From: Candidatus Zambryskiibacteriota bacterium
Lineage (GTDB): Bacteria; Patescibacteriota; Minisyncoccia; Phycocordibacterales; DATDWN01
Length of the DNA: 46,574 bases
Direction: 5' to 3'
NCBI GenBank assembly: GCA_026394775.1
Contig: JAPLZY010000009.1
Coordinates: 1-46,574 of the forward strand
Shown here in pieces: positions 28,782 to 43,287 of this stretch; the first letter of the stretch is position 1; each line of letters starts with the position of its first letter. Under the pieces are notes generated by a model. The model was not told the origin of the DNA and searched no databases. It saw only the letters and a program-made list of their open reading frames with translations. The position numbers and the translations under genes were made by a program.

Positions 28782-28888
28782 TGTTGCTACAAGATATCAC
28801 AGTATTCATTATATTGCAAGGGCTTTATCACCGATAGGTGTATTGCTCTTGGAAGGCCTTAAAAGACCCATGGTATACTAATGGTTAT

Positions 28889-29905
28889 ATGTCATCTCTC
28901 AAAGCTCTTAAACAACAGTTTCTTGAATATATTGAGATAGAAAAAGGACGGTCTTTAAATACGGTTGAAAATTATGACCGCTATCTTACGCGCTTTTTGA
29001 AATTCATTAAACACGACTCTCCCGCAGATATCACTGACAGTACTATTCGAGAGTTTCGACTCTGGCTCAACCGACAGTCAAACCTACCATGGAAAAGTCT
29101 TGATAAAGACGGAAAGCCTTTGAAAAACCGCGACAAAGGAGAAACATTGTCTAAGAAAACTCAAAATTATTATCTCATTGCCCTTCGAGCGTTCCTTAAA
29201 TATTTGGCTCGTGAAGGAGTAAAGTCTGTGTCCCCAGAGCGTATTGAGCTTGCAAAAGTGAGTGAGCGATCGCTTGACCTTATTACAGGTGCTGAGCTGA
29301 CACGTCTTCGTGAAGCGCCCAAAGGCACAGGTCTTAAGGTGTTGCGAGACAAAGCTATTATGGAGCTTCTTTTTTCGACAGGGCTTCGTGTGTCTGAGCT
29401 CTGTGCGCTGACTGCTGATATAGACCTAAGTTCTGATGAGCTTTCAATTCGAGGGAAAGGAGGAAAGGTTCGTGTTGTTTTTATTTCAGATGAGGCAAAA
29501 AAACATGTAAAAGCATATTTGCTTGCTCGAAAGGACATGGAAGAAGCTTTGTTTGTGCGAATTGGTGTTGAAGGAACAGGGAAAAATACAATGGCTAAAC
29601 CCCGCGAGTCCAAGAGCGGGGTCGCCCGATCCGCCAAGGGCGGATTTAGGGAATCGAGCGCACTCAACCGCCACTCAGTAGAACGGATCATCAGACACTA
29701 TGCGACCAAAGCAGGTCTTTCAAAAAAAGTCACTCCGCATACGATGCGTCACCTGTTTGCTACTGACCTACTTTCAAATGGTGCAGATATTCGCTCAGTG
29801 CAAGCGCTGCTCGGACATTCAAGTATTATTACGACTCAGATATATACACATGTAACTGACAAGCATCTACGAGACATCCATAAGAAATTCCATAGCAAAA
29901 AGTGA
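28889..29905 (+). CDS. XerC/XerD-like tyrosine recombinase
   Basis: EKGRSLNTVENY, LFSTGLRVSEL, GKGGKVR, TPHTMRHLFAT, LLGHSSIITTQIYTHV. Confidence 0.93.
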   Translation: MSSLKALKQQFLEYIEIEKGRSLNTVENYDRYLTRFLKFIKHDSPADITDSTIREFRLWLNRQSNLPWKSLDKDGKPLKNRDKGETLSKKTQNYYLIALRAFLKYLAREGVKSVSPERIELAKVSERSLDLITGAELTRLREAPKGTGLKVLRDKAIMELLFSTGLRVSELCALTADIDLSSDELSIRGKGGKVRVVFISDEAKKHVKAYLLARKDMEEALFVRIGVEGTGKNTMAKPRESKSGVARSAKGGFRESSALNRHSVERIIRHYATKAGLSKKVTPHTMRHLFATDLLSNGADIRSVQALLGHSSIITTQIYTHVTDKHLRDIHKKFHSKK

Positions 29906-29949
29906 TTCTGACACGGCTCTGGTCTTTTTCACCAATCTTATCATACCGC

Positions 29950-30036
29950 GATCCTTACAGGATCAGTACACCTTGTCGATCTTTTGATTACAAAAGCTCT
30001 GACAAGGTCTTGCGAAAGCATATGATGCTTTCTCAC
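29950..30036 (+). repeat. Structured repeat family 3, copy A
   Basis: GATCC-TTACA-GGATC / GTAC / ACCTTG..CAAGGT / CTTGC / GAAAGCAT-ATG-ATGCTTTC / TCAC. Confidence 0.88.
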
Positions 30037-30076
30037 TTGGTAAAAAATTCTCAGAGTGTGGTAATATCTTTTAGTA

Positions 30077-33901: not shown

Positions 33902-34201
33902 GTGTATTAGGGACAGTCTTTGACGCCTGTCAAAATATAGGACTTCGTGACTGAAAGGCTCAAAATATGGCTTTGAATAAAGAAAATCGTGTACTTTATC
34001 ATTTTATTTCCCAATTAAACTCCCAGTAATCAATGTTACATAAGTAACATTGATACGCCTTACACGTGCTACATGTGCAATCAAGATAATACGCCAGTAT
34101 ATTCTTTTGAGAAGCGAATTTTGTGCACCGAGTGTTGAGCGAAGAAATACCGAGTCTAGTAAGACGAGGTGCCACGTGTAACATGGGTGTATAATATAAG
34201 T

Positions 34202-34630
34202 ATGAAAGAAAAAGCTCCGCCTAAGTTACGTACCAAAACCCAGAAACAGATAGTGGGAGCGATTGGGGAAGATGCGGTGTGTGTATATTTGAAGCGAAAA
34301 GGGTATACAGTCACAGATCGTAACTATTTGAAAAAGTGGGGGGAGCTTGATGTTGTTGCTCGCAAAGGCGCTAAAATCTACTTTGTAGAGGTAAAAAGCG
34401 TTTCGCGACCCTTTGATGATGTGCCACGTGTAACATCTGAGAGTGGTTATAGGCCTGAGGATAATATGCATCCATGGAAGTTAAAGAGGCTCTCGCGTAT
34501 CATTCAGTCCTATCTCTTGGACAAAAATGTCCCTGATGAAGTAGAGTGGCAGTTTGATGTAGCGACGGTCTATGTAGACCAAGCTAAAAGACTTTGTAGG
34601 GTAAAAATGTTGGAAGATGTAATACTTTAA
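34202..34630 (+). CDS. yraN: YraN (UPF0102) family nuclease
   Basis: GAIGED..CVYLKRKGY...RNY...GELDVVA...FVEVK, WQFDV. Confidence 0.9.
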   Translation: MKEKAPPKLRTKTQKQIVGAIGEDAVCVYLKRKGYTVTDRNYLKKWGELDVVARKGAKIYFVEVKSVSRPFDDVPRVTSESGYRPEDNMHPWKLKRLSRIIQSYLLDKNVPDEVEWQFDVATVYVDQAKRLCRVKMLEDVIL

Positions 34631-34759
34631 ATTGTAATTTGATGGTTTTATGGTAGACTGGTTTGGTATTAAGTTTTTACCACGGGGTGTGGTGTGAACT
34701 GCTAACCTGATTGTTTTGGGGGTAAAATTTAATTTGTTTTTTAAGATTAAGAATAACGT

Positions 34760-34832
34760 CGGGGTGTGGTGTAACGGCTAACATGCTTGATTTGGGATCA
34801 AGTGACTCCGGGTTCGAATCCCGGCACCCCGA
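34760..34832 (+). tRNA. tRNA-Pro(UGG)
   Basis: CGGGGTG/CACCCCG, anticodon CTTGA-TTTGGGA-TCAAG, CCGGG-TTCGAAT-CCCGG. Confidence 0.95.
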
Positions 34833-34926
34833 CGTTGGTCTGAATCTTTAAATTAAAAAACAAATTAAATTTTACCCAGAAGCGTTTTACGCTTCTGTGG
34901 CCCGAAGGGAGGTGACTCCGGGTTCG

Positions 34927-35014
34927 ACTCCTTACAGGAGCTGTACACCTTGTTGATCTTTTGATTACAAAAGCTCTAGCAAGGTCTTGCGAAGTGAGGT
35001 CGCTCACTTCTCAC
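34927..35014 (+). repeat. Structured repeat family 3, copy B (inserted in pseudo-tRNA T-arm)
   Basis: CTCC-TTACA-GGAG / GTAC / ACCTTG..CAAGGT / CTTGC / GAAGTGAG-GTCG-CTCACTTC / TCAC. Confidence 0.9.
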
Positions 35015-35049
35015 CCGGCACCCCGACTGAGTTTTTAACTATATTAGAA

Positions 35050-35349
35050 ATGTTCAAGCGAACTATCGAAGACTTTACGTGTGAGTATTGTGGGAAAAAG
35101 GTGGTAGGGAATGGTTTTACCAATCATTGTCCGCAGTGTTTGTGGTCTAAACATGTAGATGTTGACCCTGGAGACCGGCTAGCCGAATGTGAGGGACTGA
35201 TGCGTCCAACTGAGATACAAAAGAAGGGAAGTGAGTATGCTATTATCCAAGTGTGTGAAAAATGTGGCTTTACTCGAGCGAATAAGGCACAGAAGGAAGA
35301 TAGTTTTGATGCATTAACTCAGATACAGTCAGAAAAACAGTTTAGCTAG
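35050..35349 (+). CDS. RNHCP-domain zinc-binding protein
   Basis: EDFTCEYCG...TNHCPQCLWSKHVDVDPGDR...CEKCG. Confidence 0.88.
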   Translation: MFKRTIEDFTCEYCGKKVVGNGFTNHCPQCLWSKHVDVDPGDRLAECEGLMRPTEIQKKGSEYAIIQVCEKCGFTRANKAQKEDSFDALTQIQSEKQFS

Positions 35350-43096: not shown

Positions 43097-43115
43097 AGGG
43101 TATTAAACCTTTTCC

Positions 43116-43196
43116 ACTCCCTACAGGAGCAGTACACCTTGATTACCTGAGTACAGATAATCAAGGTCTTGCGAAGTGAGGTCACTCACTTCTCAC
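43116..43196 (+). repeat. Structured repeat family 3, copy C
   Basis: CTCC-CTACA-GGAG / GTAC / ACCTTGATTA..TAATCAAGGT / CTTGC / GAAGTGAG-GTCA-CTCACTTC / TCAC. Confidence 0.88.
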
Positions 43197-43287
43197 CTCA
43201 GTTCAAAAATACAAAAGAATACTTTTGTATTTTGCTCACCTTACGTCGTGAATAAAAAAACCGCAATGACTGCGGTGTTTTTTTGCT

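Follow-up and report, generated by a model that had tools for sequence, protein, structure and literature searches.

The locus described here lies in a window of 46,574 nucleotides, the whole stretch of DNA analysed, from the genome of an ultra-small freshwater bacterium (G000; other G-numbers denote its relatives in a family set of 63 genomes). Between a yraN-like gene and an RNHCP-domain gene, an intact tRNA-Pro(UGG) gene sits inside the separated halves of a second tRNA-Pro gene. This nest is real: the six elements listed in the initial annotation, which was drawn up from the letters alone, are all present and in place to within a few bases. The features are as follows.

34169..34630, plus strand: yraN-like gene (UPF0102), the left neighbour (Pfam PF02021, E 2.3e-16)
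34632..34659, plus strand: putative resident promoter (TTGTAA, 16 nt, TGn-TAGACT), read from the sequence
34683..34720, plus strand: 5′ half (positions 1–37/38) of the outer tRNA-Pro, interpreted below as resident and dead, from alignment to the inner gene
34720..34759, plus strand: left arm of the inverted repeat, part of the insert (inverted-repeat search); its first Gs overlap the outer anticodon/G37
34760..34833, plus strand: inner intact tRNA-Pro(UGG) (ARAGORN and the Rfam tRNA model)
34834..34877, plus strand: right arm of the inverted repeat, part of the insert (inverted-repeat search and pairing across nests)
34876..34900, plus strand: hp1, a bulged hairpin of the insert, CCAGAARCR-loop-YGYTTCTG(T)GG, with a 9–10 bp stem and one bulged T
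34901..34909, plus strand: hp2, a small hairpin, CCCGAAGGG, forming the right end of the insert (pairing across 12 nests)
34910..34931, plus strand: outer tRNA-Pro 3′ part, piece 1, a direct repeat of the inner gene (20 nt, 95%)
34932..35013, plus strand: dispersed structured repeat in the outer T-loop, one of 13 copies in G000
35014..35027, plus strand: outer tRNA-Pro 3′ part, piece 2, a direct repeat of the inner gene (14 nt, 100%)
35050..35349, plus strand: RNHCP-domain gene, the right neighbour (Pfam PF12647, E 8.1e-27)

Aligned with the inner gene over 38 columns, the outer 5′ half shows the four mismatches and one insertion originally reported. Its likeness ends after TTTGGG, at G37, which agrees with the break at 37/38 that had been described; the 3′ copy, however, resumes at about tRNA position 41 instead of 38, so that positions 38–40 are absent. 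The 3′ part is indeed split by a dispersed repeat. Piece 1 spans the end of the anticodon stem, the variable loop, the 5′ strand of the T-stem and most of the T-loop, and piece 2 supplies the 3′ strands of the T-stem and acceptor stem and the discriminator. Between the outer halves, the insert runs in the order left arm, tRNA, right arm, bulged hp1, small hp2, and measures about 190 nt in G000, of which 74 nt are tRNA. It had been taken for a unit bounded by the inverted repeat. The arms do belong to it, but its right boundary lies beyond the repeat, because hp1 and hp2, the two small hairpins already noticed in the first reading, are part of the unit.

The inner gene scores 66.6 bits with Rfam at 34760–34832 (gathering score 29) and is called by ARAGORN at 34760–34833, so both programs confirm it as an intact tRNA-Pro(UGG). 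It forms a full-scoring cloverleaf in the tRNA models, as expected of a functional tRNA, and is the sole tRNA-Pro in the whole-genome tRNA list of G000. Run on the locus with its intron options, as had been proposed, ARAGORN found the inner gene alone and no intron-containing outer tRNA. A tRNA-Thr that it called over hp1 and the outer 3′ part at a lowered threshold was rejected as spurious.

The arms flanking this gene are perfectly complementary over 25 nt (34720–34744 against 34853–34877, read directly from the sequence). The inverted-repeat search recovered this pairing within a 33-nt match of 91% complementarity (34720–34752 with 34845–34877), together with the imperfect inner extension, a second register of 28 nt at 86% (34739–34766 with 34825–34852) that continues into the acceptor stem. 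The arm sequences have no other match anywhere in G000. The duplex of leader and trailer around the inner tRNA-Pro (−39.6 kcal/mol, z = −8.8) is the strongest among the 36 tRNA genes of G000 that were scored, and the predicted fold of the 249-nt nest RNA (−107 kcal/mol, z = −8.16) was equalled by none of 200 shuffles. By these folding models, neither the predicted arm pairing nor the nest fold is due to chance.

The dispersed repeat in the outer T-loop is about 83–85 nt long and forms three hairpins, with compensatory changes at 14 of 28 predicted pairs. Its junctions at 34932..35013 are ambiguous by 2–3 nt (TCC on the left, C/CC on the right), and G002, in which the corresponding outer 3′ part is uninterrupted, provides the empty site. 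We considered whether the first, variable hairpin might be half derived from the target, and rejected this since the junction in G024 does not fit. The third hairpin resembles hp1 and hp2 in its GAAG/CTTC stems, a likeness judged by eye only; the idea that the tRNA-Pro insert might belong to the family of this repeat was considered on that ground and set aside.

Nested repeats in a metagenome-assembled genome of 32 contigs (rated 99.7% complete) could arise by collapse or chimeric joining. Contig breaks fall within the inner tRNA in two relatives, and the step from the last 29 nt of the dispersed repeat to the right flank is bridged by overlapping contigs, with no single contig across it among those listed, although a contig of run X1 covers the right side (34986–35300). 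Against this, contigs from three public runs in two studies (X1, X3 and X7; P1 and P2), some of which may be the source data of G000 itself, reproduce the tRNA-Pro nest with no differences over 34400–35014/5. Independent assemblies, of 11 other family genomes and of metagenome records, moreover show the same architecture. We consider an assembly artefact vanishingly improbable.

Comparison of the locus across relatives, suggested at the outset, revealed the empty state: in G005, of the same genus as G000, yraN is followed by a plain tRNA-Pro and RNHCP. The end of yraN, the promoter motif, the leader and the tRNA 5′ half of G000 and G002 align column by column with the plain loci of G004 and G005. 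Conservation of the AAATTGTAATTT...TTTATGnTAGACT block extends to both settings, before the plain tRNA-Pro (G004, G005) and before the outer half (G000, G002). Beyond the outer 3′ end, the flanking sequence is similar to what follows the plain tRNA in G006 and G004. The outer halves run collinear with what is a plain tRNA-Pro in relatives, behind the same promoter motif, and these alignments therefore show them, at the level of sequence, to be the old resident tRNA-Pro gene. G000 and G002 also have a 1-nt insertion in the outer 5′ half in common.

A consensus scan for promoters and terminators called none in or beside the nest, the lone promoter-like match lying within yraN; the putative resident promoter, with 8 of 12 consensus matches, was left uncalled. 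We infer that this candidate promoter (34632..34659) serves the entire nest. The sole RNA run from a DNA-bearing sample (X22) gave no match to the stretch.

In G000 the outer gene has mismatches in its D and anticodon stems and the dispersed repeat in its T-loop. Elsewhere the outer gene has taken an independent repeat insertion in the T-loop (G024), lost its T-arm by deletion (G017) or lost its 3′ half altogether (metagenome locus L188). With its stems broken, a repeat in its T-loop, and neither splicing endonuclease nor RtcB detected in the genome, the outer gene is shown, as far as such predictions reach, to be dead.

A functional, intron-like layout would require the opposite, namely an outer tRNA that is still used, the insert being excised and the halves either joined or acting as a two-piece tRNA-like RNA. 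The interruption at the canonical position 37/38 fits this, as do an outer acceptor stem that keeps its complementarity in all 12 family nests described below and an outer T-stem in G072 that differs from the inner one by a single compensated pair. The machinery, however, is not apparent. Within 34550–35150 there was no match to Intron_gpI up to E = 10, a search that in G000 recovers introns in tRNA-Met (78.3 bits), tRNA-Asn (68.1 bits) and tRNA-Asp (41 bits, under the gathering score), and the insert shares no likeness with these three group I introns beyond AT-rich words of at most 9 nt. EndA (PF01974) gave no match in G000 at E ≤ 0.1, with positive controls in four archaea; the best RtcB match, at 16.2 bits, falls below the cut-off of 27 and contains a stop; and no bulge-helix-bulge motif is visible in the predicted folds of the nest. 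The initial suggestion of a relic tRNA intron holding a tRNA therefore found no backing, lacking a group I core, any likeness to the genome's own introns, and EndA or RtcB above cut-off. The missing positions 38–40, the mismatched stems and the 83-nt repeat in G000, the deleted T-arm in G017 and the absent 3′ half in L188 also speak against a working outer tRNA, and we regard the intron-like reading as highly improbable.

The insert recurs as a module in the family. An hp1 pattern gave one match in each of 15 of the 63 genomes, and none in the reversed control. Fourteen of the matches lie beside tRNA-Pro, comprising 12 full nests in five genera and two cut by a contig end; the fifteenth was set aside as a chance match within a coding region. 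Over the 12 nests, 94.9% of the cells in the helices are paired (86.2% in shuffles) and 11 pairs have changed on both sides (5.1 expected), values that none of 500 shuffles reached; controls with slid helices were 41–49% paired. Compensatory changes occur in all three helices, the arms, hp1 and hp2, affecting 4 of 11 pairs in hp1 and all three in hp2 (CCC/GGG, TCC/GGA, AAATTT/AAATTT). Both boundaries of the nest (37 and about 41) are identical in every case, and the cassette, as we will call the insert, is single-copy in each genome carrying it. Across the 63 genomes none was found without a tRNA or outside a tRNA-Pro gene, and viral contigs gave no match to the tight hp1 pattern. A loose pattern that did not enforce complementarity matched at least 120 times in unrelated phyla among general contigs and is uninformative. 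We detected no clear target-site duplication; a candidate is the GGG that occurs both at the left junction and in hp2.

The cassette is far better conserved than the DNA around it. Its non-tRNA parts are 86–97% identical within genus g7 and 78–82% identical between g3, g7 and g10, whereas the flanks (40 nt upstream, 30 nt downstream) for the most part do no better than shuffled sequence (means 53–55%, maxima 64–70%) and the C-terminus of the neighbouring YraN shows merely 49–76% protein identity within g7. Within g7 there are two types of cassette hp2 and three tRNA-Pro sequence types. This conservation could stem from a function of the RNA instead of from mobility.

The same architecture occurs at tRNA-Ile(GAU) in G000 and at least eight relatives; its geometry is constant in two genera, and the outer pieces track each genome's own inner gene. 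In G000, 8 of 38 tRNA genes are surrounded by their own fragments. Separately, a duplicate of the last 14–17 nt of tRNA-Pro often follows the gene after 130–165 nt (G053, G026, G016, G010).

How the outer and inner genes relate within a nest bears on its origin. In all 12 family nests the outer halves are like their own inner tRNA (0–4 mismatches per half), whereas two kinds of metagenome nest are heterotypic, with outer halves that match each other and an inner gene of another type. In L191 the shell and the inner gene belong to different tRNA-Pro sequence types, the outer halves departing from the inner gene by six mismatches and one gap over 37 columns and by five mismatches and three gaps over 35. 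L190 and L193 are near-identical loci in two records. Their nest, of tRNA-Pro(CGG), shares the hp1/hp2 module; its shells are again unlike the inner gene (6 + 1 of 37; 5 + 1 of 34), and it is enclosed by a third, outermost shell with its own arms and hp1-like and hp2-like hairpins. That the inner gene is of another type than its shell in both kinds of nest suggests that it arrives with the insert, although a later swap of the inner allele by homologous recombination could also yield a heterotypic nest. Serial insertion into the innermost live gene would explain the three-level doll.

Taken together, the collinear outer halves, the module in 14 of 63 genomes and the heterotypic metagenome nests favour the initial proposal of a replacement tRNA inserted into the resident one, and we judge with a probability of about 60% that a small tRNA-replacement cassette was inserted into the resident tRNA-Pro gene at this locus. 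It is also right, as was remarked at the outset, that such nesting is not what a plain tandem duplication produces.

The likeness of outer and inner copies in 12 of 12 family nests would equally result from local duplication with gene conversion, and this leads to a different history: a single ancient insertion or duplication, now immobile, inherited vertically and often lost by recombination between its direct repeats, in which gene conversion and templated palindrome correction keep copies and arms alike and the hairpins have no role beyond helping the precursor to fold and be processed. In g1, at least, the nest is old and vertically inherited, and not a recent arrival, since the derived insertion of the outer 5′ half is common to G000 and G002, whose cassettes are just 74–75% alike. 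In G002 the outer 3′ end and the inner tRNA are followed by the same 13 nt, which a conversion or duplication tract would account for, and the constant geometry of the tRNA-Ile nest points the same way, as does the match of its outer pieces to their own inner gene. Such a history still needs an origin by insertion, and it fits poorly with g7, where cassettes stay nearly uniform amid background flanks and a diverged YraN and where several hp2 and tRNA types coexist, or with heterotypic nests and a three-level doll. We think it rather unlikely.

The nests might instead be scars, left when two islands, one at the 5′ part and one at the 3′ part of tRNA-Pro, were deleted to stubs, or when a triple tandem array decayed. 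The end duplicates that often trail tRNA-Pro in this family agree with such events. Stubs, however, would hardly share the boundaries 37 and about 41 in every nest, be complementary to each other or preserve a conserved module, and the inner gene can differ in type from two mutually matching outer halves. An integrase island leaves a complete copy and a partial one, whereas here two partial copies surround one complete gene. No integrase gene lies within the insert, which is too small for a recombinase, and the single Phage_integrase match in G000 (window 29282–29866), its one tyrosine recombinase, is 5 kb away. Scars of this sort seem improbable to us.

Under the cassette-insertion reading, the cassette would have entered the anticodon loop after G37, replacing positions 38–40 and killing the resident gene, whose two halves became the outer shell, while the cassette's own tRNA became the cell's only tRNA-Pro. 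No promoter is recognisable in the cassette, so that transcription of the inner tRNA most likely starts at the resident promoter and crosses the dead 5′ half; the enzymes that normally process tRNA ends would then release it from the long helix. The arm helix, continuing the acceptor stem, would hold the inner tRNA in register against the competing outer halves, and may also be recognised by a mobilising enzyme. Later, the dead shell would have decayed and taken the unrelated 85-nt repeat into its T-loop.

For movement, our preferred guess is that tRNA-directed nucleases set off break repair of the homing type; hairpin-dependent single-strand transposition (G000 has one Y1, RAYT/IS200-like, nuclease gene) or site-specific recombination could be responsible instead. 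One lead to the mechanism may be a family of small HNH endonucleases (PHROG 2255, E 5e-32), whose genes lie no more than 400 nt from a tRNA gene at 29 of the 30 family loci examined. In five genomes, covering three tRNA-Pro sequence types, the HNH gene lies 7–56 nt directly upstream of tRNA-Pro, and at eight loci it lies inside tRNA-Asn group I introns. In G006 the small ORF upstream of tRNA-Pro, which encodes 135 aa, was named by PHROGs, having no Pfam match at E ≤ 0.01 and an HNH match of E 0.011 when hits up to E = 10 were admitted. G000 has a paralogue next to its tRNA-Phe. The association concerns tRNA genes in general: no outer halves were found around the five HNH and tRNA-Pro units, and no endonuclease gene in or beside the G000 nest.

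We tentatively extend the cassette reading further, while holding the extension at well short of even odds. The nests may be footprints of undescribed selfish elements, tiny hairpin cassettes whose target is the anticodon loop of a tRNA gene that is essential and present only once, and which survive by bringing a working copy; each new copy would again be a target, so that invasions stack as Russian dolls. In ultra-small bacteria such cassettes, moved in trans by tRNA-directed nucleases, the HNH family for example, would drive the replacement of tRNA genes by horizontal transfer. Mobile DNA within an essential gene is known either to splice itself out, as introns and inteins do, or to rebuild the part that it breaks, as integrase elements do. 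Bringing a whole spare gene would be a third way. It would explain tRNA genes surrounded by their own fragments in streamlined genomes, the odd split or pseudo tRNA calls that gene callers return there, and the spread of tRNA alleles of differing sequence types across genera, and it would connect, in a way open to testing, with the many small HNH endonucleases whose genes adjoin tRNA genes. Nested shells would be a natural record of successive invasions and could serve to date and trace them.

We found no small, tRNA-carrying, inserting cassette of this kind described in print, and several known systems share some of its properties. MITEs and REPINs are small, non-coding, inverted-repeat DNAs that depend on an enzyme in trans, are multi-copy and carry no cargo. 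The cassette resembles them in its size, its inverted repeat and its presumed need for an enzyme in trans, but only one copy occurs per genome, invariably in tRNA-Pro and with a gene as cargo, and on the right side its inverted repeat is not terminal. Group I introns, of which G000 has three in tRNA genes, are likewise invasive DNA in the anticodon loop that keeps tRNA function, and an HNH endonuclease gene is present in some of the introns related to the one in tRNA-Asn. They rescue the host gene by self-splicing, whereas the nest insert, without a ribozyme core, carries a spare gene and leaves the interrupted one, as we read it, dead.

The free-standing homing endonuclease SegB, in the tRNA gene cluster of phage T4, and MobE, an example of intronless homing in T4-like phages, offer a parallel for an endonuclease gene adjoining tRNA genes, with inheritance of the flanking tRNA region reported to be non-reciprocal (PMC2330249, PMC2790892). 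Such homing swaps alleles, and no nested gene is known to result from it; the G000 nest, for its part, has no endonuclease gene. Archaeal bulge-helix-bulge (BHB) introns and split or permuted tRNAs (PMC4033280, PMC4090602) share the break at 37/38 and complementary sequences at the break. They need EndA and a ligase and yield a joined, functional tRNA, whereas neither enzyme was detected in G000 and the outer gene has decayed.

In Caldiarchaeum subterraneum a tRNA-Thr gene is disrupted by a mobile element that lies between a 5′ tRNA fragment and a complete copy downstream, and the authors propose that integration drives tRNA gene disruption (Sugahara et al. 2012, PMC3293823). That case is archaeal and involves a 1.8 kb element with a predicted recombinase and introns in the complete gene that are removed by the archaeal splicing machinery, and no whole gene is described as nested in an anticodon loop. 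Integrative elements (phages, ICEs and islands) also insert into tRNA genes, often at the anticodon loop or T-loop, and restore them, keeping a working tRNA and displacing a fragment of the old gene (PMC4383910; van der Gulik et al. 2023, PMC9897764). They are kilobases long, encode a tyrosine integrase, supply just the portion of the tRNA past the crossover and leave a single fragment behind. The nest insert, by contrast, is about 110–190 nt long, with a whole tRNA as its sole gene; fragments of the old gene remain on both the 5′ and the 3′ side, and the insert is further marked by complementary arms and a pair of conserved hairpins.

The tRNA-Pro nest lies on contig C28, which forms the window, in a Candidatus Zambryskiibacteriota genome (G000) of 752,968 bases in 32 contigs with a completeness rating of 99.7%. 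An intact tRNA-Pro sits within the anticodon loop of an outer tRNA-Pro split into two halves (the shell); the insert, or cassette, comprises a left arm, the inner tRNA-Pro, a right arm and two hairpins, hp1 and hp2. A yraN-like gene (Pfam PF02021) flanks the nest on one side and an RNHCP-domain gene (PF12647) on the other.

Elements of the tRNA-Pro nest in order (window coordinates).
34683-34720: outer tRNA-Pro 5′ half, where the order starts (read from the sequence)
Between the outer 5′ half and the inner tRNA-Pro: AT-rich left arm (read from the sequence)
34760-34833: intact inner tRNA-Pro(UGG) (ARAGORN; Rfam 66.6 bits)
3′ of the inner tRNA-Pro: right arm, reverse complement of the left arm
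34876-34900: hp1, a 25-nt hairpin with a single bulged T
34901-34909: hp2, a 9-nt hairpin
34910-34931 and 35014-35027: outer tRNA-Pro 3′ part, in two pieces with a repeat of about 83 nt between them

Each part described in the initial annotation was recovered. Over 38 columns, 4 mismatches and one inserted base separate the outer 5′ half from the inner gene, the counts originally given, and the intact tRNA-Pro, the two small hairpins and the 3′ half split by a repeat are as listed. A repeat finder returned arms of 33 nt with 91% complementarity, 25 nt of them perfectly paired, together with a second register that extends into the acceptor stem, as had been claimed; three direct repeats delimit the outer halves. 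The flank pairing of the inner tRNA-Pro is the strongest among the 36 tRNA genes of the genome that were scored (z = -8.8), and the 249-nt nest RNA has a predicted fold of -107 kcal/mol (z = -8.16), in which the inner cloverleaf tops a long helix.

DNA identical to the window is present in freshwater metagenome runs. Contigs of runs X1 and X7 (study P1) and X3 (study P2), some of which may be the source of the genome, match 34400-35014/5 with zero differences, a span that takes in the outer 5′ half, arms, inner gene, hp1, hp2, 3′ piece and nearly the whole repeat. One X1 contig covers 34986-35300; the last 29 nt of the repeat, a word common to other repeat copies, are crossed by no single contig among those listed. 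We regard the nest as real because independent assemblies of relatives have the same architecture.

Among the 63 genomes of the family, the hp1 pattern matched once in each of 15, with 0 matches for the reversed control, and 14 of the 15 matches adjoin a tRNA-Pro. The G079 match falls in a coding region and is due to chance. Complete nests were found in 12 genomes: G000 and G002 (genus g1), G008 and G020 (g3), G017 (g12), G023 (g10), and G024, G027, G031, G080, G083 and G086 (g7); in G071 and G072 the contig ends inside the inner gene. The order and limits of the elements are identical in every nest: the outer 5′ half terminates in TTTGGG(G), (G/A)CGT closes the left arm immediately 5′ of the inner gene, and the inner gene is followed by the right arm, hp1, hp2 and then the outer 3′ part from about position 41. 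Sequence, contigs and relatives thus all bear out the Russian-doll arrangement first noticed in the window.

An alignment of 12 rows shows pairing in 94.9% of cells for the arm helix, hp1 and hp2; shuffled alignments give 86.2% and slid partners 41-49%. Two-sided changes occur at 11 of 26 pairs against 5.1 expected; neither value was reached in 500 shuffles, although these figures are somewhat overstated, the structure having been taken from the same alignment and the sequences being related. All three hp2 pairs show two-sided change (CCC/GGG, TCC/GGA and A/T-rich forms). Outside the tRNA, cassettes are 86-97% identical among five similar g7 nests and 78-82% identical between genera g3, g7 and g10, while the nest flanks (40 nt upstream, 30 nt downstream) are mostly at shuffle level (means 53-55%, maxima 64-70%) and the last 75 residues of the neighbouring YraN show 49-76% identity within g7. 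The contrast is clearest in G083, whose cassette is 86-88% identical to other g7 nests and whose flanks are 50-67% identical. The g1 cassettes are exceptional, being 74-75% identical to each other and, outside hp1, at background level against all other genera. This excess conservation reflects either sequence constraint or recent spread, and argues against an inert scar.

Aligning the locus across relatives identified a plain tRNA-Pro downstream of yraN in G004 and G005, which belong to the genus of G000. These genomes align with G000 and G002, every column in register, through the end of yraN, a conserved block (AAATTGTAATTT ... TTTATGnTAGACT) that we read as a putative promoter, the leader and the first 37 tRNA nucleotides, which correspond to the outer 5′ half. 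Sequence 3′ of the outer 3′ end is similar to that 3′ of the plain tRNA in G006 and G004, and both flanks of the inner gene are new. The outer halves are therefore the old resident gene, with the inner gene carried on the insert. A derived one-base insertion is common to the outer halves of G000 and G002, so in this genus the nest was inherited, with the shell already dead in the common ancestor. In G002 (locus L013), the 13 nt that follow the inner tRNA occur again directly behind the outer 3′ end, and the gene downstream of the nest is not RNHCP; together these point to a rearrangement and to a tract of conversion or duplication that extends past the tRNA.

A tight hp1 pattern retrieved six metagenome loci. 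Two look like family nests, L192 reading as the G024 nest and L189 resembling the G008 locus, and L188 is a nest without an outer 3′ part. At L191 the outer halves are of the GTATAGCGGTAGTAT / GTTCGATCCTCGG type and the inner gene of the GTGTAACGGCTAACAT / GGTTCGAATCCCTG type, outer and inner differing by 6 mismatches and 1 gap in 37 columns and by 5 mismatches and 3 gaps in 35; by reading, the inner sequence is that of the G034 plain tRNA-Pro, and the outer 5′ half that of the G024 inner gene. In L190 and L193, which are near-identical and come from two records, a tRNA-Pro(CGG) occupies a cassette of this kind, together with hp1 and an hp2, and the shell differs in type from the inner gene (6 + 1 of 37 and 5 + 1 of 34 on the same count). 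Around that shell lies a third one, decayed, which has complementary arms of its own as well as hp1-like and hp2-like hairpins, a three-level doll that would follow if each new cassette entered the innermost live gene. In these heterotypic nests the two outer halves agree with each other and not with the inner gene, which insertion of a foreign cassette predicts and which would be hard to obtain from local duplication; the inner gene, by this comparison, comes with the insert.

The sequence comparisons show that the resident gene was interrupted after G37 by a unit bringing its own tRNA-Pro. The initial annotation had offered such an insertion of a replacement tRNA as one reading, and the collinearity of the outer gene with plain tRNA-Pro, the conserved module and the heterotypic nests make it the best supported, with a probability of roughly 60%. 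The main rival, a single old insertion, now immobile and kept tidy by conversion, would fit the inherited g1 nest; set against the heterotypic and three-level nests we think it considerably less likely. It differs from the insertion reading mainly in whether the cassette still moves.

The outer gene is, from its sequence, evidently dead. In G000 both its D stem and its anticodon stem contain mismatches, positions 38-40 are absent and a repeat lies within the T-loop; G002 has the same shell minus the repeat, an empty site, G024 has an independent repeat copy in the same T-loop, and in G017 the T-arm is short by two bases. The other origin initially proposed, a relic tRNA intron containing a tRNA, is not upheld: no group I core was found in the insert, which shows no likeness to the three real group I introns of G000 (in tRNA-Met, tRNA-Asp and tRNA-Asn), and searches of the G000 genome returned no tRNA splicing endonuclease and nothing above the cut-off for RtcB. 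A whole-genome tRNA search of G000 found one tRNA-Pro gene, and the inner gene must therefore serve all four proline codons.

A promoter scan called none in the cassette, where a TTGAAA in the left arm is only 8-13 nt 5′ of the inner gene. As the cassette seems to have no visible promoter of its own, the inner tRNA would probably be transcribed from the resident promoter, in a precursor starting with the dead 5′ half, and mispairing between that half and the inner 3′ strand would be possible. By extending the acceptor stem through pairs -1:73, -2:74 and onward, the arm helix would lock the inner gene in register, which would account for the retention of pairing in the g1 nest despite its age: there the arms of G000 and G002 differ, yet 25 nt pair perfectly in G000. 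Kept pairing could also arise without selection, through templated correction of quasi-palindromes.

Three enzymes are leads for cassette movement. In G006, a 135-aa ORF between yraN and tRNA-Pro (L017:1043-1450) matches the HNH endonuclease family PHROG 2255 (E 5e-32; Pfam HNH only E 0.011), which is present in 27 of the 63 family genomes. A tRNA gene lies within 400 nt at 29 of 30 loci checked (L017, G000 C2:13267-13503 on the minus strand, and 28 further loci, L194-L223). The HNH gene is 7-56 nt upstream of tRNA-Pro in five genomes and inside a tRNA-Asn group I intron at 8 loci; others, G000 included, lie directly upstream of tRNA-Arg or tRNA-Met or beside tRNA-Phe. The five adjoining tRNA-Pro genes fall into three sequence types, that of G076 (g7) being g1-like, as if nuclease and tRNA travelled together; no outer halves were found at these five loci. 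The family is a candidate lead on this sequence association. The second lead is the one Y1 (RAYT/IS200-like) nuclease gene of G000; enzymes of this type recognise hairpins with an extrahelical base. The third is the sole tyrosine recombinase gene of G000 (window 28838-29905, Phage_integrase E 1.2e-38), 5 kb upstream of the nest and immediately followed by a dispersed repeat copy.

This dispersed repeat, of ~85 nt, comprises three hairpins, of which the first has a variable stem and a TTAC loop, the middle one is long and the third is variable, and it shows compensatory changes at 14 of 28 predicted pairs. It has no Rfam entry, lies mostly just downstream of genes, is present in many relatives and has entered the loops of dead tRNA shells several times.

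Dispersed repeats, group I introns and tRNA-like units in G000.
Window 29949-30038, 34926-35015 and 43115-43199: dispersed repeat copies, with 10 more on other contigs
C23:17524-17859, minus strand: tRNA-Met/CAU gene with group I intron (Rfam Intron_gpI 78.3 bits)
C23:20201-20507, plus strand: tRNA-Asp gene with group I intron (Intron_gpI 41 bits)
C32:41502-41811, plus strand: tRNA-Asn gene with group I intron (Intron_gpI 68.1 bits)
C3:25905-26095: small tRNA-like unit after tRNA-Tyr, 3′ of the terminator
C3:33944-34130: small tRNA-like unit after tRNA-Leu(CAA), 3′ of the terminator
C32:41812-41995: small tRNA-like unit after tRNA-Asn, 3′ of the terminator

The introns, of 232-264 nt, are all in the anticodon loop. 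Same-strand partial self-copies occur within 600 nt of 8 of the 38 tRNA genes of G000: 5′ pieces precede Glu, Ala, Ile and Pro, and 3′ pieces follow Tyr, Leu, Asn, Ile and Pro; the tRNA-Met match is probably a cross-match to the neighbouring tRNA-Asp. A second doll is formed by tRNA-Ile(GAU) (C8:79360-79815; locus L224:161-616), whose four outer pieces (tRNA positions 1-20, 27-35, 36-46 and 55-74) match the inner gene without a difference and have three 85-nt members of the dispersed repeat between them. One of these copies lies in the outer anticodon loop, and the tip of its middle hairpin carries the inner tRNA-Ile on AT-rich complementary arms. This geometry recurs in at least 8 relatives from two genera, the outer pieces following each genome's own inner gene. 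Each tRNA-like unit repeats the acceptor 5′ strand and has an hp1-like hairpin (TGTTA loop for tRNA-Tyr and tRNA-Asn, AAA for tRNA-Leu), a T-arm with about 100 nt interrupting its loop, and a second copy of the final 15-18 tRNA nucleotides. The terminator is also duplicated at the tRNA-Leu unit, and similar units lie 3′ of tRNA-Pro in the nest-free G016, G018 and G010. ARAGORN also called a tRNA-Ser with anticodon ACU and a tRNA-Ile with anticodon UAU in G000, and no tmRNA gene.

A full-text literature search of limited scope yielded no account of an entire tRNA gene lying within its twin's anticodon loop. Integrase elements are described as splitting and restoring tRNA genes, leaving one fragment (PMC9897764; PMC4383910), whereas the G000 nest has no integrase and two fragments. 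Group I introns occur in tRNA anticodon loops (Williams 2020 preprint), but the insert lacks a ribozyme core. Free-standing homing endonucleases are reported in the T4 tRNA region (PMC2330249, PMC2790892), in contrast to the nest unit, which has no endonuclease. In an archaeal tRNA-Thr, a 5′ fragment is parted from the gene by a 1.8-kb recombinase-encoding element (PMC3293823). For systems that need splicing enzymes, none of these were found in G000. The nest lacks defining features of each of its nearest known systems; new here are heterotypic and three-level nests having the hp1/hp2 module in common, a cassette that covaries and is conserved to excess, the count of nests across the family, the association with HNH genes near tRNA genes, and a second doll built on a dispersed repeat.
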